From Patescibacteria group bacterium (GTDB lineage: Bacteria; Patescibacteriota; Minisyncoccia; UBA6257; 2-01-FULL-56-20), in the NCBI GenBank assembly GCA_024654525.1, contig JANLHI010000002.1, positions 16,496 through 80,495 on the forward strand: 64,000 nt of DNA. Direction: 5' to 3'. Positions 4,454 to 33,618 of this stretch are shown here, in pieces. How positions within the stretch are numbered: position 1 is the first letter of the stretch; the number at the start of each line of letters is the position of its first letter. The translations under genes and the position numbers were made by a program. Below the pieces are notes generated by a model. That model made no database searches and was not told the DNA's origin. It saw nothing but the letters and a program-made list of their open reading frames with translations.

Positions 4454-4460
4454 TGTAGTT

Positions 4461-4540: not shown

Positions 4541-4607
4541 TTTGACATTTTTCACAAAAGTTTTATTATATTCCCCATTGACCTTTAATAACTTAAATTG
4601 TGAAGAT

Positions 4608-5354
4608 ATGAAAAAATTCCTCTTGGTTCAGCTTAACCCTAACGGGGTAGCTGGGCATTTCTGGATGGGAATTGTGGGTTTGGTAATTACTGTAGGGGAG
4701 TCATTCCCCGGGTTTTTTCCAGATCCCCAATCCTTGTTAGTTCTCGCGGGTGTCGTGATTTTCGCGACTCTCCTCATCCCGGCGGGCGGTACTGATCGGG
4801 AAACGGAAGCCGATGTCTTGATTATAATGACGTTCGGTACGAGTGGTGTGTTCGGCGCCACTATAGGCGCGATGCTCACGTCTCTCGAAGGAATTTCTCC
4901 AAAACTCCTCACACCATCCATGATATGGAGTATGACGCTGGTAATTCTGGTATGTAAATCGTACTGGAAATGTGGGTATCTTTCGCGGGAACTTCTCGCG
5001 AGGGTATTTTCGAGTGTCAGGGTGAATGATTCAGTCCTTCACCTTATTGCATTCCTCGAGCGTCATAAGTTTCATGTCCGTGTAAGGAACCTCCGGCGGG
5101 CTATCCTCGACTTTGACGCAGAAGCCGTAGCGAAAACTTTCGATGGGTGGGTCGAGGGTAAGGTAAGATTTGCTTCGCTTGAAGCAATTCTTCGGCAAGA
5201 GGAAGCTTGGACGGAAAACATCGAGAATCTTTTCGTTCGGGCACGTGAGGATATCCTAAAACATATCACCTCGGGTGGGGAGAGCGTATCTCTCTCATCG
5301 GACTCGAAACCCGTTTCACGAGGGCGGGTGAAAATTCACCCCGCCCAGCAGTAA
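4608..5354 (+). CDS. Hypothetical membrane protein
   Basis: Hydrophobic helices are followed by a charged C-terminal domain. The track ORF starts at 4542; the ATG at 4608 (MKKFLL) is more plausible. Confidence 0.4.
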   Translation: MKKFLLVQLNPNGVAGHFWMGIVGLVITVGESFPGFFPDPQSLLVLAGVVIFATLLIPAGGTDRETEADVLIIMTFGTSGVFGATIGAMLTSLEGISPKLLTPSMIWSMTLVILVCKSYWKCGYLSRELLARVFSSVRVNDSVLHLIAFLERHKFHVRVRNLRRAILDFDAEAVAKTFDGWVEGKVRFASLEAILRQEEAWTENIENLFVRAREDILKHITSGGESVSLSSDSKPVSRGRVKIHPAQQ

Positions 5355-6581: not shown

Positions 6582-7622
6582 TTGTGTAATATTCTTATGC
6601 CAAAAAAAGAGAAAAAGAAGAATATCCTCATCCTCTTTTGCGGTGGGACGCTTGTAATGGAGGAGAATGAAAAAGGAGCACTTGAGACACCGTTAAAAGA
6701 GAAGGCAATCCGCACGCTTCTCTCGATGGAACCGAAACTCAAGAAAACCGCGAATCTCTTTGTGCATTATGTGGACAATATTGATAGTACGAACATGGAG
6801 CCGCGACATTGGGATACCATGACAAGGGTGATTGCGAAGGAGTATCGCAAGTATGATGGGTTCGTAATCACGCATGGCACGGACACTATGGGATATACCG
6901 CAAGCGCACTTTCGTATTCTTTGCAGAATCTTGGGAAGCCGGTGGTGCTTACTGGCGCGCAGATTCCCGGCGCGAAAGTGGAAACCGATGCGCGCAGGAA
7001 TTTTATCAATGCGGTTTCGGTTGCGTGCATGAATATTGCGGGAGTAATGGTGGTTTTTGACGAAGAGATAATTCTTGGTGCGCGGGCATCAAAAGTATCG
7101 GAATCAAAGTTGAATGCATTTGAAACGATAAACTGGGATTTATTGGGAGAAATTCGGATAGATATTCGTTTAAGTAATGAGGCAAAAAAGCGACATTCCG
7201 GAGTGCTTGCACCAATGCCCGGATTTGAGGAAAATATCACTGTGGTAATGTTGGTGCCGGGAACTCCCGTAGAAATGCTTATGCGCCTTCTTGAAGACGG
7301 CGTGAAGGGGATGGTACTTCGCGGATACGGTCCGGGGAATATCGCCTATACATATCTCCCTGTAATCAAGCGAGCACGACAACTCAATGTGCCGATTGTG
7401 GTGGATAGCCAATGTCTTGAAGGATCAACCTCAATGCACCTTTACGACGTGGGAAAACAGGCACTCGACAAGGGAGTTATTCAGGCATACGACATGAGCA
7501 TTGAGAGCGTAGCAACCAAACTCATGTGGGCGCTCAAGCACGCAAAGAACTACGCCGAGGTGAAAAAAATTATGCATACGAACTACACCGGAGAAATCAA
7601 TAAAGAAGGAAAAATCTATTAG
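6582..7622 (+). CDS. L-asparaginase (type I) / GatD-like
   Basis: ILILFCGGTL and ITHGTDTM are asparaginase active-site motifs. Confidence 0.8.
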   Translation: MCNILMPKKEKKKNILILFCGGTLVMEENEKGALETPLKEKAIRTLLSMEPKLKKTANLFVHYVDNIDSTNMEPRHWDTMTRVIAKEYRKYDGFVITHGTDTMGYTASALSYSLQNLGKPVVLTGAQIPGAKVETDARRNFINAVSVACMNIAGVMVVFDEEIILGARASKVSESKLNAFETINWDLLGEIRIDIRLSNEAKKRHSGVLAPMPGFEENITVVMLVPGTPVEMLMRLLEDGVKGMVLRGYGPGNIAYTYLPVIKRARQLNVPIVVDSQCLEGSTSMHLYDVGKQALDKGVIQAYDMSIESVATKLMWALKHAKNYAEVKKIMHTNYTGEINKEGKIY

Positions 7623-7766: not shown

Positions 7767-9023
7767 TTACTCGTACCGCAACGCCTCAATCGGACTCTTG
7801 CGGGATGCCTGACTTGCCGGGTATCCACCGAAAACGAGTCCTATAAGTGCAGATACTCCCAATCCAAGGAAAGCGCCGTTCCACGGGAATACAAACTGCC
7901 AATTTACGCCAAGCCCATTAGAAAGACCTATCGCGATGCCAAATGAGAGGAAGGCGCCAAGGATTATACCTATAACGCCGCCAATGGCGGTAAGGAGTAC
8001 CGCTTCAAGAAGGAATTGGGAAAGAATATCTCGGTTTGTGGCGCCGAGTGCTTTCCGAAGTCCTATTTCTCTGGTGCGTTCGGTAACGGACACAAGCATA
8101 ATATTCATAATACCCACACCACCCACAAAAAGTGCGATGGATGCCATAGCCACGAGAAAAAGTGTCAATGCATTGGTGATGGTGGCAATGCGCGCGGAGA
8201 GGTCGACTTGTGTCTGCACGAAAAAGTCGTCTTTTGTCGGGTCATCAATATTATGGTTGTTTCTAAGTGTTGTGGTGATATCGTTGACTGTCTGACTGAC
8301 GGTATTGTCGCTGTCCGCAGTAACAATAATGCGGTCGAAATATGTCCTCCCTAATACATAGCTCTCTGCGGTGGTGTAGGGAATGAGAACCATGTCGTCA
8401 AAATTAAAGAATGATACCTGTCCCTTTGAAGCCAAAATACCGACAATACGAAAACTTTTATTGTTGATTTTAATTTTTTCCCCAAGTGGATTGATTCCGG
8501 GATCAAAAAGTTTATTTTTCACTTTATCTCCAATAACCACGACACTTGCTCTGGATTGGACATCATTGGTTGAAAAGAAATCCCCGATGCTCGGGTAGAT
8601 GTCAAAGATGTTACCTATTATATTGTTTTCATCACTGCTTCCTCCGCCCAAAACGGTGCTTTGATATGTTTGGTTTCCATATGCCAGTCTCACGGGCCCA
8701 AACATAACCGGCATGACATCCGAAGCGTGAGGGAGATTGCTTTTATTTTTCAGGCTTTGAAGGTCGCGCTCTTTGAGTGAGTTAAGAAATACGTTTGCAA
8801 AATCGCTCGGTCCGGTTGGTTGTCTCCCGGGAATGATTGCGATAGTTTTTGAACCGAGTCCTTGAACTTGTCCCAAGATGAATTTTTGTGCTCCCGCGCC
8901 AACCGAGATGACGAGCATAATTGCGGTAATTCCAATAACGATTCCCAGTATGGTCAGCATCGAACGCGAACGGTTTGTAGAGAGTCCCGTAAAAGAAGTT
9001 TTAAGTGTATGTTTCCAGACCAT
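7767..9023 (-). CDS. ABC transporter permease, MacB/FtsX family
   Basis: An N-terminal TM helix and a large extracytoplasmic domain are followed by a C-terminal FtsX-like four-TM domain ending ...SQASRKSPIEALRYE. Confidence 0.8.
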   Translation of the reverse strand: MVWKHTLKTSFTGLSTNRSRSMLTILGIVIGITAIMLVISVGAGAQKFILGQVQGLGSKTIAIIPGRQPTGPSDFANVFLNSLKERDLQSLKNKSNLPHASDVMPVMFGPVRLAYGNQTYQSTVLGGGSSDENNIIGNIFDIYPSIGDFFSTNDVQSRASVVVIGDKVKNKLFDPGINPLGEKIKINNKSFRIVGILASKGQVSFFNFDDMVLIPYTTAESYVLGRTYFDRIIVTADSDNTVSQTVNDITTTLRNNHNIDDPTKDDFFVQTQVDLSARIATITNALTLFLVAMASIALFVGGVGIMNIMLVSVTERTREIGLRKALGATNRDILSQFLLEAVLLTAIGGVIGIILGAFLSFGIAIGLSNGLGVNWQFVFPWNGAFLGLGVSALIGLVFGGYPASQASRKSPIEALRYE

Positions 9024-9094
9024 AGAAAGTTCAGAATTTAAAAATCAAAATTCAAAATAAATGTGTTTGCGAAGCAAGCTCTGTAATGTTGCAT

Positions 9095-9814
9095 TTATTT
9101 CGTATATTCATCTTCAGCAGTAAGGCGTTTAGCGACTTTCTTATCGGATTCGATTGAACCATCCATAAGCCGGATAATGCGTTCCGCGTGTTCGGCGGTA
9201 GAGGTTTCATGGGTAATAAGTATGATTGTTTTTCCGTGTTTCTCATTAAGATTCTGAATGATCGACATAACGTTTTTTCCTGATTTTGAATCCAAATTTC
9301 CCGTCGGTTCGTCGGCAAAAATAATTTCGGGATCGTTCACTAAAGCACGCGCAATGGCGACGCGTTGTTTCTCTCCGCCAGAAAGCTCGGCAGGGCTGTG
9401 TTCCGCACGATGCGTGAGGCCAACCGATTCAACGGCATCTTGTGCACGCGTATTCCATTCGCGTTCGGGGATATTCGAATACATAAGAGGTAGTTTCACA
9501 TTTTCAAGTACCGACGTGCGAGGAAGAAGATTGAACATCTGAAATACGAATCCGATTTTTTCGTTGCGTATTTTTGCGAGTTCTTCCGAAGAATATTCCG
9601 CGATATTTTTTCCTTCAAGAAGATATTCACCGCGTGTAGGTTCATCAAGAAGTCCCAGGAGGTGCAATAACGTTGATTTTCCGCTTCCCGAGGGCCCCAT
9701 AATGGCAAGAAATTCGCCTTTCCGTACGGAAAAATTTACACCGCACAGTGCGTTAGTTTCCGTTTTTCCGTCTCGATATGACTTCGTAAGATCTTTTGCG
9801 TGAATAATATTCAT
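9095..9814 (-). CDS. ABC transporter ATP-binding protein (MacB/LolD-like)
   Basis: Walker [13 protein letters not shown] signature [15 protein letters not shown] and Walker [10 protein letters not shown] are present. Confidence 0.9.
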
Positions 9815-21376: not shown

Positions 21377-23599
21377 ATGCATTTACTTAAGCGTCTTGAA
21401 CTAAATGGTTTTAAATCGTTTGCGGGAAAGACCGTGCTTGATTTTCCGAACGGTATTACTGCGATTGTTGGGCCGAACGGTTCGGGAAAGTCGAATGTGG
21501 TTGATGCAATTCGATGGCTTCTCGGTGAGCGTGACGCAAAACACCTTCGTGGTGGGAAAGTGGAAGATCTGATTTTTGCGGGAACTCCGGATCGCCCGCG
21601 TGCGGGACTTGCACAGGCGAGTCTGCATTTCGATAACGAGAAAAAGTTTTTTCCGCTTGATACTGCGGAAGTCACGGTAAGCCGAGAAGTTGCTCGTGAC
21701 GGAACAAGTAAATATTTTTTGAATAAAGCGGAGGTGTTGTTGCGCGATCTTGTGGATTTTTTTGCACAGGCACGTTTGGGAAGTCGGGGAATCGTGGTGG
21801 TAACGCAGGGGAATAGCGATCTTTTTATACGTGCCGAGCCGAAAGTCCGACGCGAGATGATTGAGGAAATTTTGGGTCTTCGCGAATACCAGATTAAAAA
21901 AGCGGATGCGGAACGCCGTCTTGGACAAAGCGAGGATAATTTACGCAAGGCACACGCGCTTATTGATGAGATTCTTCCTCATCTCCGCTCGTTGCGCAGA
22001 CAGGCAACACGATGGGAAAAGAGAGGTGCGTGTGAAGAAGAACTTCGTACGCTCGAGAATCACTATTTCGGAGAGTCGTGGAAAGACATTGCAGTGCAAT
22101 CGTCTGTGCTCGAGGAAGAGATGAAACAGCATAATGTGCGGGGAGAAACGTTGCAACGCGAGCTTTCTGATGCCGAAAAAAAAGAAAAAGATATCGAGAA
22201 AAGTCAGCCGGAGGAAAGAAAGGAACTCGCTTCATTGCGCGAAGAAATGCGCGCTATTCTCGAGAAGAAAAGCATAATGGAAAAAAATGTGGCGCGTCTT
22301 GAAGCGCAAGCGGAAATTGTGTCTCATGACGAATCGGATGATGAATTTCTTCCTTCCGGGGAGATAATGAAAGTGGTACAGCGAGTGCGTGACATGTTAC
22401 TTGCGGCAGAAGATGCCGATGTAGAGGCATTGCAGACCACAATCCAATCCGCGCTTGATGAATTCGAGACGCTGTTTGCAAGTCATGTAAAGAAGAAAAA
22501 ACCGGCAACAGATGCGCCGTCGAATGTAATGCACGAAGAATTGCAAAAGGTTACGGATGCGCTTTCGGTACTCAGTAAGGAACTCAATGCATTTCGCGCA
22601 AAAGAGCAGGAACTTGAAAAAGGACAAGAGGATTTTTATAAGATATTCACTGCGGCAGTGCGCGAAGTGGAACGTATTCGCAAAGAACTGCATGCATGGG
22701 AGGCGGTGCGTCAGGATAAACTTCTTCGCAAAGAACGCCATACTTTCCAGCGCGAAGAATTGCGCCGTCAGATGTGGCAAGCAGGGAGAAAGCCCGAAGA
22801 GTTTGACGGTGGGGAAAAAGTGGAGAATATGACATATAGCCGAGATGAAGCGGAAAGAAAAATGTTGCGTTTGCGCGGAGAACTTGCGGCAATCGGCGAG
22901 ATTGACGAGGCGGTGATGAAAGAAGCGAAAGAGACGGAATCGCGGTATGAATTTTTGACGCATGAAGCGGAAGATCTGAAAAAAGCGGTGGGCGATTTAA
23001 GGAATCTTATTCGCGAACTTTCGGATAAAATACGAACGGAATTCGGTGGCGCACTCCACACCATCAATGACGAGTTCAAAAAGTTTTTTGGATTAATGTT
23101 TGACGGGGGAAGCGCGAAATTAAAAATCCAAAAACAAAAACTTAAAAGTTATTCTGAGAAAGAAGAGAGTCAGACCGGCAATTCTGAAAGCAAGGAGTCG
23201 GAATCAGGACTTCACCCCGGGGAGTTTATCGAAGAGGATCAGGAAGAGGGAATTGAGATTGAGTTTAAGCTCCCTCGAAAACGGGCAAATTCACTTGATG
23301 TACTCTCGGGCGGTGAGCGAAGTTTGGTGGGACTTGCCGCGCTTTTTGCGCTGATTTCAGTGAGCCCCCCGCCATTTTTAGTGCTCGATGAAATTGATGC
23401 CGCGCTTGATGAGCGAAATGCGCGTCGTTTCGCCGATTTACTCAAGGAGTTTGCACGAAAGACGCAATTTATCGTAGTAACGCACAACCGTGCAACCATG
23501 GAGTCTGCAAACGTACTTTATGGGGTAACACTTGGTCCCGATGGCACCTCGAAAGTGCTTTCGTTATCGCTTGAAAAAGGAGTAGCGCAAGTTTCATGA
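21377..23599 (+). CDS. smc: SMC-like chromosome-segregation ATPase, short form with no recognisable hinge
   Basis: The N-terminal head reads LELNGFKSF...ITAIVGPNGSGKSNVVDAIRWLLGE. The C-terminal head reads LSGGERSLVGLAALFAL...FLVLDEIDAALDERNARRFADLL...FIVVTHNRATMESANVLYGVT. It is only about 740 aa, and the middle is continuous coiled coil. Confidence 0.8.
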   Translation: MHLLKRLELNGFKSFAGKTVLDFPNGITAIVGPNGSGKSNVVDAIRWLLGERDAKHLRGGKVEDLIFAGTPDRPRAGLAQASLHFDNEKKFFPLDTAEVTVSREVARDGTSKYFLNKAEVLLRDLVDFFAQARLGSRGIVVVTQGNSDLFIRAEPKVRREMIEEILGLREYQIKKADAERRLGQSEDNLRKAHALIDEILPHLRSLRRQATRWEKRGACEEELRTLENHYFGESWKDIAVQSSVLEEEMKQHNVRGETLQRELSDAEKKEKDIEKSQPEERKELASLREEMRAILEKKSIMEKNVARLEAQAEIVSHDESDDEFLPSGEIMKVVQRVRDMLLAAEDADVEALQTTIQSALDEFETLFASHVKKKKPATDAPSNVMHEELQKVTDALSVLSKELNAFRAKEQELEKGQEDFYKIFTAAVREVERIRKELHAWEAVRQDKLLRKERHTFQREELRRQMWQAGRKPEEFDGGEKVENMTYSRDEAERKMLRLRGELAAIGEIDEAVMKEAKETESRYEFLTHEAEDLKKAVGDLRNLIRELSDKIRTEFGGALHTINDEFKKFFGLMFDGGSAKLKIQKQKLKSYSEKEESQTGNSESKESESGLHPGEFIEEDQEEGIEIEFKLPRKRANSLDVLSGGERSLVGLAALFALISVSPPPFLVLDEIDAALDERNARRFADLLKEFARKTQFIVVTHNRATMESANVLYGVTLGPDGTSKVLSLSLEKGVAQVS

Positions 23600-24300
23600 A
23601 TATTCCGCGACATATTCTCATTATTCCCGATGGCAATCGTAGATGGGCGCGCGCGAAAAATAAACCCGCGCATATGGGGCATCTTGAGGGCGTGCGAATT
23701 ACCGGCGCGATATTGAAAGAAACGCTGAATCTTGGAGTAACCACAATCACTATATGGGGCGCTTCGGAAAAAAACCTCACCAAACGTTCGCGACAGGAAG
23801 TTGCGTTTCTTGGAAAAATATTCAAAATTTATTTCACAAAACTTCTGAAAGAATCTGATCTGGAAAAATATGATGTACGTATTCGTGCGCTTGGGAAATG
23901 GAAAGAGCTTTTGCCTCAATCGGTTTCTGCCACGGTACAAAAATGCATTGATACCACAAAAACACACAAAACTCGCTCGCTCACATTCCTTCTTGGTTAC
24001 AATGGTAAGGATGAAATGAGAAATGCGATAGCGGATATTGCGGCGGAAAAGCTCAAGAATCCAAAGATAAAAATCAGGGAAGATGACATTAAAAAGTATC
24101 TTTGGACAAAGGATTTACCGCCGGTGGATTTAGTAATTCGTACGGGAGGAGAACCGCATCTTTCCACAGGAGTAATGATGTGGGATATTGCCGATGCGCG
24201 ATTTTATTTCACCGAAACATTTTGGCCCGCATTCACGCCAAAAGAATTAAGAAAAGCGGTGGATGAGTACTCGCGTCTTGAAAAGCGTGATGGCGCGTGA
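23596..24300 (+). CDS. uppS: Isoprenyl transferase (undecaprenyl-diphosphate synthase)
   Basis: HILIIPDGNRRWA is the UPPS motif. The gene overlaps the smc stop by 4 nt. Confidence 0.9.
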   Translation: MNIPRHILIIPDGNRRWARAKNKPAHMGHLEGVRITGAILKETLNLGVTTITIWGASEKNLTKRSRQEVAFLGKIFKIYFTKLLKESDLEKYDVRIRALGKWKELLPQSVSATVQKCIDTTKTHKTRSLTFLLGYNGKDEMRNAIADIAAEKLKNPKIKIREDDIKKYLWTKDLPPVDLVIRTGGEPHLSTGVMMWDIADARFYFTETFWPAFTPKELRKAVDEYSRLEKRDGA

Positions 24301-24345: not shown

Positions 24346-24419
24346 GGGCCCATAGTTAAGTGGTATAACGGCGCATTCGCATTGCGCAGGCGGGAGTTCG
24401 ATTCTCCCTGGGTCCACCA
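24346..24419 (+). tRNA. tRNA-Ala (anticodon CGC)
   Basis: Acceptor GGGCCCA/TGGGTCC carries the G3:U70 Ala identity pair. Anticodon stem GCGCA/TGCGC with loop TTCGCAT. T-arm GGTTCGATTCC. CCA is encoded. Confidence 0.85.
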
Positions 24420-24603
24420 AATGATAATTTTCGAGAGCGTTGTGCTGATTTAATTCGTAAACTAGGCCTAATTTGGCAGTTCTAATTTGTATCACTACTG
24501 AAAAGCCACGTGTTATCCACACTTCAGGTTTGTTTATATTACTTGACCTGATGTAAGCAAAGGAGTATACTTTGTTTACATTGATAAAAAGATGTAAGCA
24601 AAC

Positions 24604-25746
24604 ATGAAATCACTAGATATCGGCCAGTTAAAAGATCAAAAAGAAGGCTTTAAAGCTTTCGTTCCCAACCCTTTTCCTCCAAAGGGCGGTTTTGAGTTTG
24701 ACCCGAAAATTCTGAAGAAAAGCGACGAGGCGACGCGCCTCTTGGGTAAACTCGACGGTATCACCAAACTCCTTCCCGATGTCGATTTTTTCTTGAGTAT
24801 GTACCTGCGCAAGGACGCCGCATCATCAAGTCAAATCGAAGGGACGATGGCCACGATGATTGACGCCATCGAAGCCGAAGTCCAAGCAAGCGCGAATATT
24901 CCGGAAGATGTTGATGACATTCTGCATTACATCAAGGCGCTGAACTACGGGATGAAGCGCGTACAGCAAGACGACTTTCCGATGGCTCTCCGTTTTGTAA
25001 GAGAGTTACATAAGCAATTGATGGACAAGGCTCGAACGACTCATTATTCCGACCCAGGAGAATTCAGAAAATCACAGAACTGGATTGGTGGTACTCGTCC
25101 TGACAATGCACGCTTCGTGCCTCCCCCTGTCGAAGAAATGCATGTTGCCTTGAATGATCTTGAGAAATTTATGCATTCGAGTGATGACATTCTCACGATC
25201 ATCAAAGCGGCGCTTATACACGCGCAATTCGAAACGATTCACCCATTTCTCGATGGTAACGGTAGAACCGGTCGTATGCTCATAACGTTCTATCTTTGGA
25301 AAGAAGGTTATCTGGAGAAACCGGCATTGTTCCTGTCCTCCTACTTCAAGAAGCATCAAAAAGTCTATTACGAAAGACTGTTCGGCTATCACTTTGGAAG
25401 TGTTTCCGATTGGGTAGATTTCTTTCTTGATGGTGTCATTGAGATCGCCGGTGAGGCAATCGACATTGTCGGAAAGATCACGACACTTCGTGAAAAAGAC
25501 ATGCTCAAAGTACAGACTCTCGGCAAACGCTCGTCAGAGAGCGCGGCTTTGGTATTGCCAAAACTTTACGAACAGCCGATCGTCAACGTTGCGACGGTTC
25601 AAAAATGGACCGGTTTTTCCCGAGTTGGCTCCCAGTCGGTGATCAATCGATTTATCGAGATGGGTATCCTTACTCCCAAGGATAAGGATAAGAAATACGG
25701 GCAATCGTATATCTATAAAAAATACATAGATATATTTGCTGAATAA
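24604..25746 (+). CDS. Fic-family protein (AMPylator-type)
   Basis: Canonical Fic motif HPFLDGNGRTGR. The protein is 380 aa with a C-terminal winged-helix-like region. Confidence 0.85.
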   Translation: MKSLDIGQLKDQKEGFKAFVPNPFPPKGGFEFDPKILKKSDEATRLLGKLDGITKLLPDVDFFLSMYLRKDAASSSQIEGTMATMIDAIEAEVQASANIPEDVDDILHYIKALNYGMKRVQQDDFPMALRFVRELHKQLMDKARTTHYSDPGEFRKSQNWIGGTRPDNARFVPPPVEEMHVALNDLEKFMHSSDDILTIIKAALIHAQFETIHPFLDGNGRTGRMLITFYLWKEGYLEKPALFLSSYFKKHQKVYYERLFGYHFGSVSDWVDFFLDGVIEIAGEAIDIVGKITTLREKDMLKVQTLGKRSSESAALVLPKLYEQPIVNVATVQKWTGFSRVGSQSVINRFIEMGILTPKDKDKKYGQSYIYKKYIDIFAE

Positions 25747-25751
25747 TTCAG

Positions 25752-26207
25752 ATGACACACGACATCATCAAAAACTTAATATTCGTGGATTGCGAGGGAC
25801 ACGGACCGGCACCGACACTGAATGATTCGGTGGGTTTTGAATTTGGCGCGGTTGCGCACCCTTCAAAGCAGACATTCCACGGAATCGGGGCAACAAAAGA
25901 GACATTTGAGGATTTCGACAAATGGATTTCATCCGTGGTAGAGAAAGGATTCAGGCCGCTGTTTGTGAGCGACAATCCGGCCTATGACTGGCAGTTCATA
26001 AACTATTATTTCCACCTGCATCTCGGCAGAAACCCGTTCGGCCATTCGGCAAGAAGGATCGGCGATTTTTACGCCGGACTCGTTGGCAACTTCACTGATG
26101 GGAGTTCATGGAAAAAGCTACGGGTTACGGTGCATGACCACAATCCCGTAAACGATGCGATGGGTAATCTCGAAGCGTTCGAGAGGATATTAAGCGGAGA
26201 AAGATAA
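25752..26207 (+). CDS. Small DEDDh-type 3'-5' exonuclease-like protein
   Basis: Exo I-like FVDCEG, Exo II-like SDNPAYDWQF and Exo III-like HDHNPVNDAMGN (H-x4-D). Only 151 aa. Confidence 0.5.
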   Translation: MTHDIIKNLIFVDCEGHGPAPTLNDSVGFEFGAVAHPSKQTFHGIGATKETFEDFDKWISSVVEKGFRPLFVSDNPAYDWQFINYYFHLHLGRNPFGHSARRIGDFYAGLVGNFTDGSSWKKLRVTVHDHNPVNDAMGNLEAFERILSGER

Positions 26208-26260
26208 AATATATGCCAAAGGAAATCGCCAAGAAAACTAAAGAAGAAGTATAATTACAT

Positions 26261-28216
26261 ATGAAAAATATCTTTGAACAATTAGTAGATTTATTAAAAA
26301 AAGATGAGCGCCTTGTTTCGCAAGACGGCGTGCTTTTGAAAAATCAAGTGCAGGAATTGGCTAGGAAAAATGATCCAGCTTTGATTAAGCTTTTACTTTC
26401 CGACAAGGCGATAAAACAGCACTTCTTTTTTGAAGTAGAAAAAACGCTGATTTTTGATAAAGAAAAGTTTATCCGCTTTGTTTCTAATAAACAATTTTTA
26501 CCGGATTCCTATACTGCGTTTAAAAATAAAATCGGCTTAACTGCTGGCGATGAATATGTGAGCGAAAACAAAGAAGTGGTTTTAACTTGGCCTTATAAGG
26601 ATTGTGTTTTGGAAGGCGGAATGACCAAAGAAGACCAAAAGAGGGATGAGATTTTTTATAATGAAACATTAGCGCCGGACGATATCAATCGCCTACTGGA
26701 CGCCAAAGTTTTTACCAATTTCAAACGGATAGACAAAAAAGGCGAACACAAACTGGACGGCTTCAAGCGCGATGAAAAAGGTACGATTAAAGACAATTTG
26801 ATTATTAAAGGCAACAACTTGCTCGCGCTTGCTTCACTTAAAAAAGAATTCGTCGGAAAAGTGAAGCTGATTTACATTGATCCGCCGTATAACACAGGTG
26901 ATGACGGATTTAATTATAACGATACATTCAACCATTCAACATGGATGACCTTCTTAAAAAATCGATTGGAAATAGCTAGAAAAATGCTGACCAAAGATGG
27001 ATCGATTTTTATCCAAATTAATGATATCGAAGAAGCATATCTAAAGGTGTTATGTGATGAGGTTTTTACTCGGGAAAACTTTCATACGAGCATATGCGTG
27101 CAAATGTCTCATTTGAGCGGAGTAAAAATGGCGCACAAAGATAAGAAATTACCTAAAATTAAAGAGTATGTCTTATTTTATACAAACTCACCAAAGATTA
27201 AATTAAACCCACAATATGTTCCAGCTAGTTGGGATGAAGCACTAGAGCGATATTCTTCATTCGTAGTTAAAGAAAATTATACTGATGATGAGTGTGAAAA
27301 ATGGAAGATTATTCCACTAAACAAAGCGATCAAAGATAGTGGCGTTGATATAAAAGACAAAAAGGCAGTAACTGATTTCAAATTAAAAAATGCAGACTTA
27401 ATATTTAGAACTGCAAGAAATAGAGGGGCAGATTATTCAGCATACAATCCTAATTGTTTTAATAAAGTCACCAACCCCGACGAATCATATTATTTTGTTT
27501 ATAAAGGAGAAGATATAAGTTTTGCAGCGGACAAGGTTATTTCTATAAACGGTAAATTGACTCCAGTTGTTGCTTTGGGGGATATTTGGACCGATATCGG
27601 AATAAATAATCTATCAAATGAAGGTGGTGTGGATTTAAGATTTGGAAAAAAACCTGAAAAGTTGATAGAACGAATAATTAAGCTAATATCTAATTCAGAC
27701 GATGATATTATCGTGGATTTTTTTAGTGGATCAGGAACTACCGGTGCTGTTGCTCATAAATTGAAAAAGCGATATATCCTCATTGAGCAATTAGCTGATC
27801 ATATTAATAAATCTATTGCAAGAATTAAGAATGTAATCAAAGGTGAACAAAGTGGGATAAGTAAAGATAATGATTGGAAAGGTGGCGGAGATTTTGTCTA
27901 TATGGAACTTGCTAAATGGAATGAGGAATGGATAGAAAAAATTGAAAAAGCCAAAACCGGCAAAGAACTCGCTAAACTTTGGGATGAGATGAAAGAAACC
28001 GTCTTTTTGAGCTACAAAGTCGATCCGACAAATGTTGATGCAAATGCCAAAGATTTTGCGGAATTATCTATTGCCGATCAAAAGAAATTTTTGATTGAGT
28101 GCTTGGATAAAAATCAGCTTTATGTAAATTTGAGCGAGATTGAGGATAGAGAGTATGGGGTGAGTAAAGAGGATATAAAGTTAAATAAAGAGTTTTATGA
28201 AAAAGATAGCTTTTAA
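26261..28216 (+). CDS. mod: Type III restriction-modification N6-adenine DNA methyltransferase (Mod)
   Basis: Motif IV (IYIDPPYNTG) precedes motif I (VDFFSGSGTTGAVA), which is beta-class order. The 651-aa length is typical for Mod. Confidence 0.85.
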   Translation: MKNIFEQLVDLLKKDERLVSQDGVLLKNQVQELARKNDPALIKLLLSDKAIKQHFFFEVEKTLIFDKEKFIRFVSNKQFLPDSYTAFKNKIGLTAGDEYVSENKEVVLTWPYKDCVLEGGMTKEDQKRDEIFYNETLAPDDINRLLDAKVFTNFKRIDKKGEHKLDGFKRDEKGTIKDNLIIKGNNLLALASLKKEFVGKVKLIYIDPPYNTGDDGFNYNDTFNHSTWMTFLKNRLEIARKMLTKDGSIFIQINDIEEAYLKVLCDEVFTRENFHTSICVQMSHLSGVKMAHKDKKLPKIKEYVLFYTNSPKIKLNPQYVPASWDEALERYSSFVVKENYTDDECEKWKIIPLNKAIKDSGVDIKDKKAVTDFKLKNADLIFRTARNRGADYSAYNPNCFNKVTNPDESYYFVYKGEDISFAADKVISINGKLTPVVALGDIWTDIGINNLSNEGGVDLRFGKKPEKLIERIIKLISNSDDDIIVDFFSGSGTTGAVAHKLKKRYILIEQLADHINKSIARIKNVIKGEQSGISKDNDWKGGGDFVYMELAKWNEEWIEKIEKAKTGKELAKLWDEMKETVFLSYKVDPTNVDANAKDFAELSIADQKKFLIECLDKNQLYVNLSEIEDREYGVSKEDIKLNKEFYEKDSF

Positions 28217-28826
28217 AACTTACGAACAAATAAAAAATCTACTCCGGATAACAGGGTACTTATTCTGGTGGATCATACCCTTTGCTTTATTTATACTGGC
28301 CACATATTTACCGAAATTTATTTGGAATATTAGTTTTAATGACTATTTAAATTTTATAAAGATTCTAGTCTGGCCCATATCAGCCTTGATTATTTTATTT
28401 TTCTTTAAAAAGGTGATAACTTACCTTTTCTTTTCCATTGATGGCTTTAATTTTTTTGGCGCCAAAGGAGAAATAAAAAATGTATATGACCTAATAACGG
28501 AAAAAGTCAACGAAAGATTTGAAAATGAAAAAAGAGAGGCCGCAAGAGAAACCGAGGTAAATAGACTACAAAGAGAAATTGAAACAAATTCAGGAAGGGC
28601 GGATGAAAATTTAAAGACTGCAAAGGAGATTTTAGCAGAATGGAAAAAATCTAACACGGATAATAAGAGACTTTTGGAGGAAAATAAGCAACTAAGGGAC
28701 GCAATTGAGAGAAAAAATCAATACTCTGGCAATTTTCCGCCTGTTTCTGGAGAGTCAGAACTTGGTACTGGTAATAAGGTTGATAATAGTCAACCCGTGG
28801 CTCCTTCCAATGAAGAAAAAATATGA
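28197..28826 (+). CDS. Hypothetical membrane protein with a C-terminal coiled coil, embedded between mod and res
   Basis: Two or three N-terminal TM helices are followed by a K/E/R-rich coiled coil. The start overlaps the mod 3' end by 20 nt. Confidence 0.5.
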   Translation: MKKIAFKTYEQIKNLLRITGYLFWWIIPFALFILATYLPKFIWNISFNDYLNFIKILVWPISALIILFFFKKVITYLFFSIDGFNFFGAKGEIKNVYDLITEKVNERFENEKREAARETEVNRLQREIETNSGRADENLKTAKEILAEWKKSNTDNKRLLEENKQLRDAIERKNQYSGNFPPVSGESELGTGNKVDNSQPVAPSNEEKI

Positions 28827-29089
28827 ATAAATATTTAATAACTTACGATTTGAAAAATAAGTCCATAAGGGATTACCAATCACTTTTTATTGCCATAAAA
28901 AGTCTTGGCCCATGGTGGCATTATTTAGAGTCAACATGGATTGTTAAAACTAATTTAAATTCCCAACAAATATGGAATACTTTAGGCCAACACTTACTCA
29001 CAAATGACCATATTTTAGTTGTAAAAATTGATAATAGTGATAAGTGGGGATGGTTACCACAAGATGCATGGAATTGGCTAAACACATAA
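28823..29089 (+). CDS. Small Trp-rich hypothetical protein (88 aa), embedded between mod and res
   Basis: ATGA start/stop overlap with the upstream ORF. The stop lies 7 nt before res. The pattern YLITYDL...DHILVVKI suggests an alpha/beta fold. No recognisable family. Confidence 0.45.
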   Translation: MNKYLITYDLKNKSIRDYQSLFIAIKSLGPWWHYLESTWIVKTNLNSQQIWNTLGQHLLTNDHILVVKIDNSDKWGWLPQDAWNWLNT

Positions 29090-29095
29090 TAAATT

Positions 29096-31780
29096 ATGCT
29101 TTACGACGAATTTAACTCATATAAAAACTTTGCCGGCGCTGATGTTTTCAAAAACAAAGCGACAGAAAAATCAGATGTTTTGAAAAATCTCAATCCGGCT
29201 TTTCCGGCGCGCGAATATCAGAAGGAAGCACTGGGGCGGTTTTATTATTATTGTGAGGAATATCACCAAAAACAAAAGCCAATTCATTTGATGTTCAATA
29301 TGGCGACTGGTTCGGGGAAAACGCTCATAATGGCGGCGAATATTTTGTATTTATACCAAAAGGGCTACCGTAATTTTATTTTTTTTACTCGTTTGGGTAA
29401 CATTATTCAAAAAACCAAAGCAAATTTTCTTGATCTAAGTTCTAAAAAATATTTGTTTGCCGACAAAATCACTCTTGGCGGACAGGAAATAAAAATCAAA
29501 GAAGTTGATAATTTTGAAGGTGTAAATGATGATGATATCAATATTATTTTCTCTACCACCGCGCTTTTACACTCTCGTTTCAATTTTGCTCGCGAAAATG
29601 TTTTAACTTACGAAGATTTTGCGGAAAAGAAAATTGTTTTGATTGCTGATGAAGCGCACAACCTATCTGTGGAAACAAATAGCAAGATAAGCAAAACCGA
29701 AGAAGAAGACCGCCGAAACTGGGAAAATACAGTAATGCGGATTTTGAACGCCAACAGCCAAAAGGATAATGTGCTTTTGGAGTTTACGGCAACGGCTCGA
29801 TTAGAACAGGAATATCCTGAGATTTTGGAAAAATACAAAGACAAAGCGATTTATCGTTATGATCTGAAAGAATATCGCTTGGACGGGTTTTCAAAAGATG
29901 TGCGAACTTTGCAGATAAACGCGCCGATTATGGAACGAGCTCTTTCGGCGGTGATTATTTCGCAATATCGCCGTAAGGTGGCAGAAAAGTATAAAATCGC
30001 ACTAAAGCCAGTGGTTATGTTTAAGGCCAACAGAGTAAGTATTCCCAAAGAAGGAATATCCAAGGAACATAATCCGCAAATTGTCGTTTCAAACATTTTC
30101 AAAGACTCTTTTCATAAACTTATTTCTGAACTAGACGAAAAACACCTAAAACAGCAAACAGCAATAAAAAACGCAACATTGCAAAAAGCATTTCAATTTT
30201 TCAATGAGCAAAAAATTACTCTTGTGGATTTAGCGGCAGAAATGAAAAGCGATTTTGCACCGGAAAAATGCTTGACGGTTGATGAAGATAAAGATTTAGA
30301 GCAAAAACAAATTTTACTTAATTCACTAGAAGATCAAAACAATGAAATCCGCGCTATTTTTGCGACAGAAAAATTGAATGAAGGTTGGGATGTTTTGAAT
30401 CTTTTTGATATTGTCCGGATTTACAACAGTCGTGACGAAAAAGGCAATAAACCGGGAAAAACAACTGTGCAAGAGGCGCAACTTATCGGGCGAGGCGCAA
30501 GGTATTATCCTTTTACTCTTGGTGAATTTACTGACCCATATAGAAGAAAATTCGATACTGATATACAAAATGAATTACGGATATTGGAACAACTTTATTA
30601 TCATAGCGTAACGAATTCTAAGTACATTTCTTTACTAGAAGGAGTTTTGGTTCGTGAAGGTATTATGCCATCACGCACAGTGCAAAAAGAGATTAAAATT
30701 AGAAGCGATTTTAAAAACAGCGATTTTTGGAAGAAAGGCTATATTTTCTTAAATTCTCGCAAGGAAAATTTAGGAAAAGATGTTTTTACTCTCTCGGACG
30801 CCAAAGCAGAATTCGACCATAACGCTGAAATAAACATCTTTCAACTACCAACGCGAGAAGCGATAGAAAAAGATTTGTTTGTTGCTGGTGCTGGCGCCGG
30901 AGTAAAGGCAAAAATTAAAATCCGAGATTTTAGAATTGCTGATTTCGGAACACATATTGTCCGCATCGCTTTGGCAAAAATATCATGCGGACAGTTTTGT
31001 GAACTTAAAAAGATTTTCGGTAACATAGAATCCGCAAAAGATTTTATTTCAAATGAAAAATATCTTGGAGGCATAAAAATTAAGGTGAAAGGTACAAACG
31101 AGCAAGTAGAAAATCTTTTGCAGATTGAAAAGTTGAATATTACCGGATTTGTGATTGATAAAGTATTGGAAGTCGCCGGCAAAGAGAAAAAGGAATACTA
31201 CGGAACAAAGGAGTTTAAAGCTCACCTGATCCAAAAAATATTTGAAAATGACAAGGTGTTGCAATTAGATAGCGAAAGTCCGCGAGCGCAAAATATGCGA
31301 GATTTTGATTTTTCTTCTCGGGATTGGTTTGCTCAAAACGAAATCTGGGGAACGAGCGAGGAGGAATCATTTTTGCGTTTTATTGATGAGGCAATAACAA
31401 AGCTAAAAAAGAAATATCAAGATGTTGCACTATTTCGTAATGAGCAGTTTTTCAGAATCTACGGCTTTGAAAACGGTGAGCCGTTTTATCCCGATTTCGT
31501 TTTGTTTTTGACGGAAAAGAAAACAAAGCAAGAAGTTATGTATCAGATTTTTGTTGAGCCAAAGGGCAATCAATTTTTGGATGCACAAAATACTTTTGAG
31601 CATTCAAAAGAGGGTTGGAAGCAAAAACTATTGGTTGAGATAGAAAAAAGTCATATTGTTGAGTTGAGGATAGAAAGTAAGGATTTTCGTTTGGTTGGTT
31701 TGCCTTTCTTTAACGAGGGACAGGTGAATAGTGCCTTGCGTGAAAAGTTTGAAGAGGTGTTTGAAAAAAAATTATTATAA
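29096..31780 (+). CDS. res: Type III restriction endonuclease (Res) subunit
   Basis: A REYQ motif, Walker A MATGSGKT and DEAH box IADEAHN are present. The C-terminal nuclease-like segment reads PDFVLFL...IFVEPKG (PD-(D/E)xK). Confidence 0.85.
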   Translation: MLYDEFNSYKNFAGADVFKNKATEKSDVLKNLNPAFPAREYQKEALGRFYYYCEEYHQKQKPIHLMFNMATGSGKTLIMAANILYLYQKGYRNFIFFTRLGNIIQKTKANFLDLSSKKYLFADKITLGGQEIKIKEVDNFEGVNDDDINIIFSTTALLHSRFNFARENVLTYEDFAEKKIVLIADEAHNLSVETNSKISKTEEEDRRNWENTVMRILNANSQKDNVLLEFTATARLEQEYPEILEKYKDKAIYRYDLKEYRLDGFSKDVRTLQINAPIMERALSAVIISQYRRKVAEKYKIALKPVVMFKANRVSIPKEGISKEHNPQIVVSNIFKDSFHKLISELDEKHLKQQTAIKNATLQKAFQFFNEQKITLVDLAAEMKSDFAPEKCLTVDEDKDLEQKQILLNSLEDQNNEIRAIFATEKLNEGWDVLNLFDIVRIYNSRDEKGNKPGKTTVQEAQLIGRGARYYPFTLGEFTDPYRRKFDTDIQNELRILEQLYYHSVTNSKYISLLEGVLVREGIMPSRTVQKEIKIRSDFKNSDFWKKGYIFLNSRKENLGKDVFTLSDAKAEFDHNAEINIFQLPTREAIEKDLFVAGAGAGVKAKIKIRDFRIADFGTHIVRIALAKISCGQFCELKKIFGNIESAKDFISNEKYLGGIKIKVKGTNEQVENLLQIEKLNITGFVIDKVLEVAGKEKKEYYGTKEFKAHLIQKIFENDKVLQLDSESPRAQNMRDFDFSSRDWFAQNEIWGTSEEESFLRFIDEAITKLKKKYQDVALFRNEQFFRIYGFENGEPFYPDFVLFLTEKKTKQEVMYQIFVEPKGNQFLDAQNTFEHSKEGWKQKLLVEIEKSHIVELRIESKDFRLVGLPFFNEGQVNSALREKFEEVFEKKLL

Positions 31781-31784
31781 ACTT

Positions 31785-32306
31785 ATGAAAATCAACACTT
31801 TGACTGGTTCAACAGGCTCACCGCAAGCAAGCTCAGTGCGAGGCAACACATTCAAACTCATCATCTCGCTTATTATTCCACAATTGGCAGGAGGTCTGGG
31901 GAGCTTCTTTACCATCAGTTCGGTGAAAGATTGGTATCCGATGCTGGAGAAGCCCTTGCTCAATCCGCCAGCATGGATATTTGGTCCGGTCTGGACGACG
32001 TTGTTTCTTTTGATGGGCTACGCGCTGTATCTTGTCTGGAAGGACGAGAGCGGAAAAAGCAAACGCCTGGCCTACTTCGCTTTTGGGATTCAAATGGTTT
32101 TAAATATGCTATGGTCAATTATCTTTTTCGGTCTGCACAGTCCGGGCGGTGCGCTTATTGAGATCGTATTCCTTTGGCTCGCCATTCTTGCCACGTTTGT
32201 TGCTTTTGCGAAAATATCAAAACCGGCGGCGTGGCTCTTGTTGCCCTATATCCTCTGGGTCAGCTTTGCTATGTATTTAAACTATTCAATCTGGATGCTT
32301 AATTAG
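31785..32306 (+). CDS. tspO: TspO/MBR-family (tryptophan-rich sensory) membrane protein
   Basis: WYPMLEKPLLNPPAWIFGPVWTTLFLLMGYALYLVW and LWSIIFFGL are hallmarks of the TspO family. The start ATG follows 2 nt after the res stop. Confidence 0.8.
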   Translation: MKINTLTGSTGSPQASSVRGNTFKLIISLIIPQLAGGLGSFFTISSVKDWYPMLEKPLLNPPAWIFGPVWTTLFLLMGYALYLVWKDESGKSKRLAYFAFGIQMVLNMLWSIIFFGLHSPGGALIEIVFLWLAILATFVAFAKISKPAAWLLLPYILWVSFAMYLNYSIWMLN

Positions 32307-32329
32307 GCAAAAATTGATAAAATAGATTT

Positions 32330-32545
32330 ATGCAAAGAACGCCGGTTTCATCAACAAATATCCGCTCCATAGGCTACGATTCACAATTGGCGACTTTGGA
32401 AGTGGAGTTTACTTCTGGTGATATCTACCAGTATTTTAATGTGCCAGAACATCTGTTCCAGCAGTTTTTACACGCATCATCACACGGGCAATTTCTGAAT
32501 GACAATATCCTCCGTTATAACTACCGATACCAAAAGGTAAGCTAA
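32330..32545 (+). CDS. KTSC-domain protein
   Basis: SSTNIRSIGYDSQLATLEVEFTSGDIYQYFNVPEHLFQQF matches the KTSC-domain pattern. Confidence 0.65.
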   Translation: MQRTPVSSTNIRSIGYDSQLATLEVEFTSGDIYQYFNVPEHLFQQFLHASSHGQFLNDNILRYNYRYQKVS

Positions 32546-32549
32546 TTTT

Positions 32550-33326
32550 ATGTTTACGCCGAAAACACAGAGAATAAAAGATATTGCGAATGATAAACAG
32601 GAAGTCATTAAGCGACTTGAAGGTATTTTTCATACGAACACCCACGTTTATATTGATTACGCAAATGTGCGTCCATGGAGCGAAAAACTTGGGTGGCATA
32701 TTGATTTGAAACGGCTCAAGCAATTTTTGGATTCTTTCAGCACTATAGAGGCAATCAATTTTTATAACGGGTACCTTGCGGGCAACGAACGTTCGGAAAA
32801 AGAAAAATCAGAAGCAGAAAATTATAAATATATTCTTCGGACAAAACCCGTCAAGATACTTAATTTTTCTATCAATGCATCAAGCGTGCCGGCAGATTCA
32901 ACGGTTCTTGTGAAGCAGTTTATTCGTCGCGCGTTACTGAAGAAGTACGAGGTAGGGACTATCGAATACTTGAATCAGCGTTTTGTCGATATGAACAAGA
33001 AGGGCGAGTATTTCATTGAAGACATGAAATGCAATTTTGATGTGGAAATCGGCGTTGATATGCTACTTGATTGCGAACGGAACAGCGCTGAAACATTTAT
33101 ACTATGGAGCGGAGACAGCGATTTTGCCGATCCGATTAGAAAATTAATAGCCGCCGGCAAAAAAGTTTACTTGTTCGCGACGGCTGGCAGAATTTCCAGC
33201 GAATTGAATGAACTTAAGGAAAGCGGTCTCAAGATAGTGGATATTTTTGAGCTCAAAGAGTTTATTTGTTGGCTAAAGGAATCATCCTATAAAAGCACAA
33301 AGGACCCCGTTGCCGAGGCCCTTTAG
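32550..33326 (+). CDS. NYN-domain (LabA-like) putative ribonuclease
   Basis: FDVEIGVDML...ILWSGDSDFADPIRKLIAAGKKVY is the NYN / LabA-like PIN-type core. Confidence 0.7.
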   Translation: MFTPKTQRIKDIANDKQEVIKRLEGIFHTNTHVYIDYANVRPWSEKLGWHIDLKRLKQFLDSFSTIEAINFYNGYLAGNERSEKEKSEAENYKYILRTKPVKILNFSINASSVPADSTVLVKQFIRRALLKKYEVGTIEYLNQRFVDMNKKGEYFIEDMKCNFDVEIGVDMLLDCERNSAETFILWSGDSDFADPIRKLIAAGKKVYLFATAGRISSELNELKESGLKIVDIFELKEFICWLKESSYKSTKDPVAEAL

Positions 33327-33537
33327 CTCTAAAATCAGTGATCTTACGATCGATTGCATTGTAGCATAAGACAAGGAAAGTTGTCCACAGTTTATGGAAA
33401 TCAAATCAAAACAACCCCATACCAGTTCGCGACTGGGCAAGAAAATTAGGAGAGAAAATTAAACATTCCAACATTCTTGCTTCGCCCGTCCGTATCCTCG
33501 TGCGAAGATAAGGGGGTCAGGTACGGGATATACTTTA

Positions 33538-33618
33538 CGATCGGTTCGGTGAAAGATTGGTATCCGATGCTGGTCAAGCTGGTTCTCAATCCGCCGGCGT
33601 GGATATTCGGTCCGGTAC
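33538..33618 (+). pseudogene. TspO gene fragment (remnant duplicate of the 31914-31990 region)
   Basis: About 83% nucleotide identity over about 80 nt to the tspO N-terminal coding region (GGTGAAAGATTGGTATCCGATGCTGG...CAATCCGCC...GGATATT.GGTCCGGT). No intact ORF. Confidence 0.5.

Follow-up and report, generated by a model that had tools for sequence, protein, structure and literature searches.

A candidate abortive-infection-type gene pair with a Cas2-like component nested in a Type III restriction-modification operon, between mod and res, of a Patescibacteria group bacterium

We analyzed a 64,000-nucleotide (nt) stretch from a Patescibacteria group bacterium (assembly GCA_024654525.1, contig JANLHI010000002.1, positions 16,496 to 80,495 of the forward strand; hereinafter the window), in which a Type III restriction-modification (RM) operon carries two further genes, orfA and orfB, between its mod and res genes (Table 1). 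In what follows A and B refer to these genes, their products and their homologues. The four open reading frames (ORFs) lie on the same strand and leave no intergenic space between them beyond 6 nt: orfA begins within the last 20 nt of mod, its TGA stop overlaps the ATG start of orfB in the tetranucleotide ATGA, and the 6 nt (TAAATT) separate the orfB stop from the ATG of res. An earlier account made from the letters of the window (the sequence-only reading) had described the same layout, and its coordinates agree with ours, its gap of 7 nt before res being counted as equivalent to the 6 nt found here. The mod product matches the Pfam families PF01555 (6e-38) and PF12564 (1e-24) and the PADLOC family MTase_III (1.8e-191), and the res product, a Type III helicase-nuclease, matches PF04851 (3e-24) and PADLOC REase_III (1.1e-107), with PF27159 and PF27365 being precomputed on its relatives.

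Both intervening ORFs have homologues, which fell into 44 protein clusters for orfA and at least 234 for orfB in a first, word-indexed search. When compared with the same pair in two related loci (L081 and L082; related loci are cited by such numbers throughout), the ratio of non-synonymous to synonymous substitution rates (dN/dS) was 0.03-0.07 for orfB and 0.11-0.13 for orfA, with dS near saturation and the non-synonymous proportion of differences (pN) far below the synonymous one (pS). These homologue clusters and low ratios show that orfA and orfB are more than chance ORFs, namely genuine genes under purifying selection. GC content is 33-38% over mod-orfA-orfB-res (window positions 26000-32000) vs 44-47% in both flanks, which is consistent with a recent horizontal acquisition of the operon as a whole. 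A consensus scan found no terminator-like site on the + strand between mod and res, and it is plausible from the gene arrangement that all four genes are on a single transcript. The same scan marked a promoter-like site upstream of mod (TCGCCA-18-TATAAT, 10 of 12 consensus matches), the count of such sites in the region being not above the shuffled expectation.

Table 1. Features of the operon and cargo genes found in the same slot of related loci; positions are those of the window, or of the respective related locus where an L number is given
Feature	Position	Strand	Remarks
mod, Type III methyltransferase, 651 residues	26261..28216	+	upstream flank of the cargo slot
orfA, 209 residues, ATG start	28197..28826	+	from the ORF listing
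orfB, 88 residues	28823..29089	+	from the ORF listing
res, Type III, HI_1054 type, 894 residues	29096..31780	+	downstream flank of the cargo slot
Promoter-like site 5' of mod	26226..26255	+	candidate operon promoter, weak evidence; consensus scan
orfA tail motif L189-G-T-G-N-K194	28761..28778	+	within the tail predicted as disordered, 21 residues before the C-terminus; proposed orfB docking site
L142 cargo	4285-4998		237-residue soluble protein
L143/144 cargo	L143 4271-4999		242-residue protein with two transmembrane segments and coiled coil
L145 cargo	3980-4998		237-residue coiled-coil and transmembrane protein plus stand-alone 99-residue WYL-domain protein
L146 cargo	2970-3998		342-residue protein, weak Shedu SduA_C/PD-(D/E)XK match
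L147 cargo	298-987		229-residue transmembrane protein

The structure predicted by AlphaFold2 for orfB (predicted local distance difference test score, pLDDT, 91.5) has the order β1-α1-β2-β3-α2-β4-α3, i.e. the ferredoxin-like β1-α1-β2-β3-α2-β4 unit of about 90 residues that is typical of the Cas2 superfamily, plus a C-terminal helix. The β-α-β-α-β pattern proposed in the sequence-only reading comes near this order without matching it exactly. In Cas2 nucleases an Asp at the C-terminal end of β1 is the metal-binding residue, and orfB has a conserved Asp at this very position: β1 (residues 2-9) ends in Y8-D9, and the HMMER alignment sets 'YLITYDL' of orfB on 'LYIVSYDI' of Cas2, Asp included. Across the family Y8 is invariant and D9 is conserved in at least 90% of members, being lost in a few distant phage-borne variants. 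Altogether 16 residues are invariant across phyla, including Y8, W31-W32-H33 from the WWHY strand, W39, D62 and G76-W77-L78...A82-W83-x-W85 from the Trp-rich C-terminal helix (GWLPQDAWNW in the window). At the level of database searches the link to Cas2 is sub-threshold: the sole match of the family profile in the PDB is Cas2 7mi4_E (E=0.7), the best PADLOC match of orfB is Cas2g (E=0.028; PADLOC-DB v2.0.0), orfB itself yielded nothing significant in Pfam or NCBIfam, and a BFVD fold search returned no match at E<=0.001; PF09827 (Cas2) is precomputed on two orfB homologues. The protein does match phrog_1090 (E=5.3e-23 over residues 1-87 of 88), as does gp05 of Enterococcus phage phiFL1A (5.4e-33), and this PHROG phage family, catalogued with unknown function, equals the orfB family. 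On the strength of the model and the alignment we file orfB as a probable divergent member of the Cas2 superfamily, distinct from the Cas2 of clustered regularly interspaced short palindromic repeat (CRISPR) systems. A CRISPR association was considered and rejected, there being no CRISPR repeat array in the window; cas1 was not among the six ORFs scanned or the top PADLOC families of 147 neighbours, no cas1-directed search of the window having been made. A role as controller (C) protein was likewise discarded, as orfB has a Cas2 fold instead of a helix-turn-helix (HTH) domain, which a Pfam scan found in neither orfA nor orfB.

No family match was obtained for orfA in Pfam, NCBIfam, PADLOC or PHROGs (its best match in PADLOC-DB v2.0.0, PDC-S52 at E=0.023, is below significance), and all of its 44 homologue clusters are on contigs of the Patescibacteria or candidate-phyla-radiation type, with one exact match to orfA in a Patescibacteria metagenome-assembled genome. 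The judgment that neither protein has recognisable family motifs thus survives for orfA but not for the Cas2-like orfB, and the related claim of an undescribed system is to be qualified in the same way: neither protein has a described function, but B belongs to a large family that has been on record as phrog_1090. A hydropathy scan of orfA detected two transmembrane (TM) segments, with starts at around residues 15 and 50. In the AlphaFold2 model (pLDDT 71), long helices at residues 2-43 and 47-82 are followed by a coiled-coil hairpin (96-130 and 135-177) and a disordered tail (179-209, with pLDDT <50), and the two N-terminal helices are predicted to form a membrane hairpin. A conserved FNFFGAKG segment (F84-x-F86-F87-G-x-K-G) directly follows this hairpin, and the family alignment contains the invariant residues W59, P60, F69, F70, F79, F84, F86, F87, G88, K90 and G91.

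The order mod-orfA-orfB-res recurs in L081 and L082. Whether homologues recur between mod and res, as the sequence-only reading had asked, is hence answered affirmatively by these two loci, but the pair also occurs outside RM operons. Three unrelated neighbourhoods (L096/97, L098/99 and L100) contain A-B in the absence of any RM genes, whereas in L093-95 it comes after a Type II-like methyltransferase and DUF6996/6997, and in L102 it lies upstream of a NUDIX gene, an MvaI/BcnI restriction endonuclease and a C5-methyltransferase. In L084, A-B is located 3' of a Type I hsdR, between a 41-residue remnant of the mod C-terminus (6892-7014) and a stop-ended res stump of 28 codons (7909-7992). This locus reads as a fossil of the original operon, and its arrangement implies that the cassette outlived the enzyme genes. 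In sum, the pair is conserved in at least eight distinct contexts, its coupled genes moving together in the manner of a toxin-antitoxin (TA) module, and gene order marks it as a portable unit that is not part of the restriction enzyme. Housekeeping genes are also shared near pairs of the B family, namely CTP synthase (L100, L101 and L102) and uppS (L101 and the window, 23596-24300), a hint that such cargo may have a conserved hotspot on the chromosome.

The slot occupied by the pair is itself variable. The res product is extremely widespread among candidate-phyla bacteria, with at least 8,000 matches, 117 of the 120 clusters among the matches listed being at least 75% identical to it. Five such res proteins, which share 89-94% identity with that of the window, were looked up and led to six loci, and the mod-res slot is filled in all six. 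The premise of the sequence-only reading that mod and res are normally adjacent therefore fails for this res clade, in which they are adjacent in none of the six relatives. The cargo genes (Table 1), most of them unannotated, show no similarity to one another, nor to orfA or orfB. Nucleotide identity to the window is 68-80% over the 3'-terminal 120 nt of mod and 87-94% over the first 84 nt of res, vs approximately 50% within the slot (L142-L146), and the C-terminal ~40 residues of the mod product are conserved among relatives with different cargo. The simplest reading, we infer, is that cassettes are swapped by recombination between the conserved flanks. As judged from these six relatives, the mod-res junction of this res clade is a cargo hotspot, and unknown defence genes of candidate-phyla bacteria may quite generally be found in it. 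A separate HTH_3 gene is present upstream of mod in L142 and L146. Genes combining HTH and SocA_Panacea domains (PanA-type) are found a few kb 3' of the same Type III operon in L143 (9246-9926) and L145 (10437-11150), which underlines that islands with this operon are TA-rich.

Relatives of orfB extend far beyond this operon. An exhaustive profile search recovered 4,992 cluster representatives (50% identity) at E<=1e-3, of which 1,480 were at E<=1e-10; relatives are encoded in 215 GTDB species genomes and on 36 IMG/VR contigs, 77 plasmid records and 16 phage records. We surveyed their neighbours by clustering crude ORF calls from 80 genome loci, ignoring clusters c6, c10, c13 and c24 from high-GC loci as likely spurious antisense or overlapping ORFs. 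A recurrent pattern among these loci is a same-strand upstream partner of B that is tightly coupled to it (gap of -8 to +23 nt) and differs by lineage. The c9 partner family, present at seven loci that represent at least four phyla, comprises two-TM proteins of 111-127 residues, and further TM partners occur in L004, L053, L067/69, L080, L131 and L132; homology of c9 to orfA was considered and rejected (hhalign probability 0.5%). Other partners are a SIR2_2 protein in L059 (Pfam 29.7 bits; PADLOC SIR2 1.5e-12), Pfam-confirmed PIN_12 proteins in L001 and L101, whose B is 72-73% identical to orfB of the window, an AAA_14-DUF4143 ATPase in L027 and small proteins of 63-88 residues, DUF2188 among them. 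Natural fusions of the B domain (P0275, P0289, P0290, P0302, P0253 and P0223) are few and uninformative; two of them show 'LGT' just past the B domain, maybe by chance.

The wider neighbourhoods of B contain many genes of defence type. Qualitatively, PADLOC assigned the 147 nearest large neighbours to capP (15), WYL (7), RmrA (6), mad3 (4), phospholipase effector (3), LmuB (3), PtuA (3) and cyclase (2). A CapP-like M78 protease is encoded divergently from B in about 26 loci (the 15 capP members, best 8e-65, belong here), and in about 14 of these it forms a three-gene set with a 148-residue protein and a σ70-like protein; B itself is often followed there by an 85-residue protein or by DUF2188, the latter in three loci. 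Ten alphaproteobacterial loci have a divergent WYL-mod-ResIII operon beside B. Elsewhere B heads operons resembling cyclic-oligonucleotide-based antiphage signalling systems (CBASS), with patatin, SMODS and Cap2 or with a DncV-like cyclase, or adjoins HsdS or a TaqI endonuclease. Among temperate phages, Enterococcus phiFL1A has B within its lysogeny module or next to it, and in Bacillus phi4B1 and Clostridium CP51 a lone B is found on the integrase/repressor strand, inside an oppositely transcribed early region, being divergent from a σ-factor gene in CP51. Small plasmids of 3-5 kb also carry B.

The σ-like genes deserve a separate remark. They are repeatedly divergent from B (L005, L013, L019, L025, L039-L041, L044, L046, L063, L066, L070 and L072, there 5' of the B match at ~8001; L149, 2240-3270), and the σ gene of phage CP51 (L149) is a bona fide Sigma70_r2+r4 protein. 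The set of protease, 148-residue protein of no family and σ-like protein is found in proteobacterial genomes, mostly Alphaproteobacteria. This suggests that these relatives of orfB are induced in a σ-dependent manner, with the 148-residue protein perhaps acting as a cleavable anti-σ factor.

Despite being unrelated to each other, the coupled upstream partners share a short motif, [FYWLM]-G-[STN]-[DEG], located 10-50 (typically 20-30) residues from the C-terminus. Examples are 'PPFGSESH' in c9, 'APFGTDSK' in the SIR2 protein, 'RIFGTEQT' in the ATPase, 'EPLGTESA' in L067, 'TFGNDPYPP' in DUF2188 and 'SELGTGNK' in orfA, where it falls in the predicted disordered tail. Leaving out c9 and orfA, in which it was first seen, the motif occurs in the last 60 residues of 8 of 14 independent partner families vs 40 of 2,328 background ORF tails (1.7%), giving a binomial P of 2e-11 that is optimistic, as the expression was formulated post hoc. 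The codons of the motif vary synonymously (GGT, GGC, GGA or GGG for Gly; TCA, AGC or TCG for Ser), and its distance to the start of B ranges from 43 to 171 nt. Free synonymous variation and variable distance indicate that it is constrained at the protein level, and an RNA or DNA element 5' of orfB was rejected on the same grounds. Furthermore, another set of orfA homologues, with 46% identity across the TM and coiled-coil regions, has the tail TSDP[IV]xEE instead and is paired with a divergent B lacking WWHY and GWLPxxAWxW. The tail motif thus co-varies with the Trp-rich C-terminal helix of B, and the aromatic surface of B would accordingly be a candidate binding site for the partner tail. Patatin (c22) was not counted as a motif-bearing partner, since the Gly of its 'YAGTD', a string that part of the copies possess, is not a conserved residue. 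In L050 a DncV-like CD-NTase encoded immediately 3' of B (8390-9499) has 'KSLGTDFK' 25 residues from its C-terminus, which raises the possibility that B docks on CBASS cyclases too.

Taken together, these observations lead us to propose that orfA-orfB may be a self-contained, horizontally mobile module of the abortive-infection (Abi) or TA type, carried as cargo in the Type III mod-res slot, a tentative reading of the comparative data of which we are slightly less than half persuaded. Under this proposal the invariant Trp-rich surface of orfB would dock on the disordered C-terminal tail of the partner; the effector that damages the cell would be this partner (in the window orfA, a membrane and coiled-coil protein); and orfB would be the cytoplasmic component that restrains orfA or triggers it upon infection. 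The constant small protein is cast as regulator or sensor because the partner repertoire (small membrane proteins, SIR2 and PIN) is that of Abi cell-killing effectors, and the Cas2 ancestry of orfB suggests that its input might be nucleic-acid sensing or cleavage, as in Cas2-family proteins. The nested pair would then constitute a second line of defence beside restriction, like PrrC in a Type I locus. The sequence-only reading had left a choice between a novel module with an accessory or regulatory role in the Type III system and a hitchhiking Abi or toxin pair. The latter is the better of the two, fitting the portability of the pair, the spread of the B family over defence islands, plasmids and prophages and the effector-like partners of B. 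Nor is the earlier account refuted on its own terms (homologues confined to settings without RM, or identity to a known C protein or Abi family): RM operons contain some of the homologues while others lie elsewhere, and neither a known Abi family nor any PADLOC family was matched.

Several points weigh against this proposal. A neighbour bearing the motif in its strict form is present in just 15 of the 80 genome loci, B often being alone, and such lone genes imply that a simple obligate pair model is insufficient. There are exceptions to the motif among the partners (L001, L101, L004, L086 and L131-138), and the docking of B on the tail is itself a proposal drawn from sequence comparisons, whose P-value, as noted, is optimistic. 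Co-transcription with mod and res is deduced solely from the gene overlaps and the lack of terminator-like sites. The genes of the related loci are crude ORF calls, with spurious ORFs in the high-GC loci, and the tallies of defence neighbours are qualitative ones made without a matched random-neighbourhood control. Finally, the strong conservation of B, its retained Cas2-type Asp and its occurrence next to RelB/DinJ on a plasmid point the other way, to B as the toxic component. A still broader view would make the orfB family the constant hub of a pan-bacterial class of defence modules not described before, as a Cas2-fold protein recognising Φ-G-S/T/N-acidic on the disordered tails of interchangeable effectors (two-TM, SIR2, PIN, ATPase and perhaps CBASS cyclase), with the HI_1054-type mod-res junction as a dedicated slot for back-up systems exchanged by recombination between the mod 3' and res 5' ends. 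We regard this generalization as doubtful.

The strongest competitor reverses the polarity of the pair. In this alternative orfB would be a nuclease toxin akin to Cas2 and VapD, and the partner an antitoxin or regulator that neutralises it via the tail motif, as do the C-terminal segments of type II antitoxins, with the variable N-terminal domains (membrane anchor, SIR2 or PIN) serving as sensor or localisation modules. Cas2-like toxin RNases in integron cassettes are mentioned by Anantharaman et al. (PMC3710099), and orfB keeps the β1 Tyr-Asp aligned with the 'YDI' of Cas2. The 16 invariant residues of B and its dN/dS of 0.03-0.07, vs 0.11-0.29 in the partners, amount to a toxin-like conservation; the partner-first gene order is the usual antitoxin-toxin order; and several partners are small (63-127 residues) and have the motif close to their C-terminus. 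Moreover, a Pantoea plasmid of 3.2 kb has B 50 nt after a gene of the RelB/DinJ antitoxin family, but that protein lacks the tail motif. The partners are also mostly membrane, SIR2 or PIN proteins, which are classical effectors and almost never antitoxins, and lone B genes are the majority, including those in prophage lysogeny and early regions, a situation hard to reconcile with an unneutralised toxin. We therefore consider the reversed polarity unlikely, though it is to be taken seriously.

Returning to orfA as the effector and orfB as its regulator, one could also envisage that the regulation is exerted on RNA, as in the type V system GhoST, with orfB being a Cas2-fold endoribonuclease that silences the membrane toxin orfA by cleaving its mRNA instead of binding the protein. 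A small membrane protein paired with one of Cas2 fold does mirror GhoT and GhoS, and the two-TM partners of 111-127 residues, which recur at seven loci and in at least four phyla, would suit such a scheme. However, neither GhoS nor GhoT showed any sequence similarity to the pair in Pfam, NCBIfam and PADLOC scans, the genes are in the opposite order to ghoST, and the SIR2, PIN and ATPase partners fall outside any small-membrane-toxin scheme. The one conserved feature shared by the partners is constrained at the protein level with synonymous sites free, and its co-variation with the C-terminal helix of B argues for protein-protein recognition, so that a GhoST-like mechanism is very improbable. 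Least probable of all is that orfA and orfB are dedicated Type III subunits, for instance in control of Res activity, membrane localisation or establishment, as the first option of the sequence-only reading would have it: the tight embedding (overlaps of 20 and 4 nt and a gap of 6 nt), the retention of mod-A-B-res in L081 and L082 and the presence of some gene in the slot of every relative inspected speak for it, but the slot genes are mutually unrelated even where res is 89-94% identical, A-B occurs without RM genes and beside RM genes of Types I and II, L084 retains A-B where mod and res are remnants, B relatives have hundreds of non-RM contexts, and there is no HTH in the pair, the HTH_3 gene upstream of mod in L142 and L146 being a separate one.

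If the pair does act as an Abi-type module with orfB as regulator, a function and a testable interaction between Trp surface and tail would be gained for a family of about 5,000 clusters now recorded as 'hypothetical' or as a PHROG of unknown function, whose setting comprises defence islands, prophage lysogeny and early regions and small plasmids in many phyla. The Cas2 fold would gain a further role outside CRISPR, with a bearing on the long-standing view that toxin-like nucleases were the ancestors of Cas2. Type III RM operons would also be shown to be able to carry second lines of defence that can be exchanged, in parallel to prrC in Type I operons, and the conserved mod and res ends could be used as anchors for mining defence genes in bacteria of the candidate phyla radiation, whose immune repertoire is poorly known. 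Were the pair merely a TA addiction cassette, it would be a modest addition to a known theme.

Some other features of the window may be recorded here. Upstream of the operon, uppS (23596-24300) is directly followed by a tRNA-Ala(CGC), a SoFic gene and an exonuclease-like gene (24346-26207). The SoFic-type Fic protein (24604-25746) matches PADLOC SoFic at 2.9e-109, and the 151-residue protein encoded 5 nt after it (25752-26207) matches the PADLOC family 'Effector: exonuclease' at 6e-20; together they resemble a further pair of defence type, in a hotspot flanked by the tRNA. Downstream of res (region 31731-33616) there is a TspO/MBR gene, whose listed GTG start overlaps res and whose true start is probably further downstream. 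A 92-nt segment of its 5' part (31899-31990) is repeated with 85% identity at 33525-33616, and the repeats enclose a KTSC-domain gene (32330-32545) and an NYN-domain gene (32550-33326), a segment that looks like an insertion with partial target duplication. The 16S rRNA match at 1836-3529 is full-length (1229.9 bits) and spans 1,694 nt vs the 1,533 positions of the model; the extra sequence of ~160 nt is possibly an insertion of the kind seen in candidate phyla.

Several known systems resemble the A-B pair in one respect or another. The hyperpromiscuous antitoxin PanA (SocA_Panacea) is, like B, one conserved small protein with many unrelated partners, and in toxin-antitoxin-chaperone (TAC) systems a SecB-like chaperone recognises a short C-terminal extension of its partner, the ChAD tail, as B may do. 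Both PanA and the TAC chaperone differ from orfB in fold and have no homology to it, and B is much more conserved than typical antitoxins. Compared with A-B, GhoS/GhoT has far less diverse partners, in addition to the lack of homology and the opposite gene order, and GhoS acts on mRNA, whereas the evidence for orfB points to recognition of a protein tail. With Cas2 (PF09827), the VapD toxin and BPSL1038, orfB shares its size (~90 residues) and the aligned Asp motif of β1; unlike these, its family has the extra Trp-rich C-terminal helix and the WWHY strand, both invariant within the family, and where Cas2 and VapD have Cas1 or VapX as partners, the orfB family has TM, SIR2 or PIN proteins.

A closer parallel in gene neighbourhood is furnished by putative defence operons under the control of CapH/CapP, including one described as 'DUF2188 + hypothetical protein' (Lau et al. 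2022, bioRxiv 10.1101/2022.04.27.489752). The CapP-type loci of orfB relatives share this published architecture, unlike the window, which is devoid of CapP, CapH, σ and DUF2188 genes; membership of the 'hypothetical proteins', which were not analysed in that paper, in the orfB family could not be confirmed. With regard to position, genes inside RM operons such as PrrC are known as back-up suicide defences guarded by the RM enzyme (PMC12707154, PMC3710099). PrrC of EcoprrI, RloC, the HEPN proteins Abi2/AbiF/AbiD and ApeA are likewise encoded by non-RM genes nested in RM operons and presumably co-expressed with them. Guarding by the RM enzyme is a model from the PrrC literature, to which A-B is likened by gene position alone. 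The host operon is of Type I in the case of PrrC/EcoprrI and of Type III in that of A-B, and PrrC, which becomes active upon inhibition of the RM enzyme, combines an ABC-ATPase with a HEPN anticodon nuclease, neither of which was found in the A-B cargo in scans of the family libraries. Further, in contrast to the PrrC-type cases, the mod-res slot is itself a hotspot with at least six different cargos. Thus, Abi or TA cargo in RM operons, a small protein with swappable effectors and the Cas2 fold outside CRISPR are themes that are already known; what appear to be undescribed, within a limited check of the literature, are the function of the B family, the tail motif of its partners with its co-variation, and the variable mod-res slot of Type III operons.

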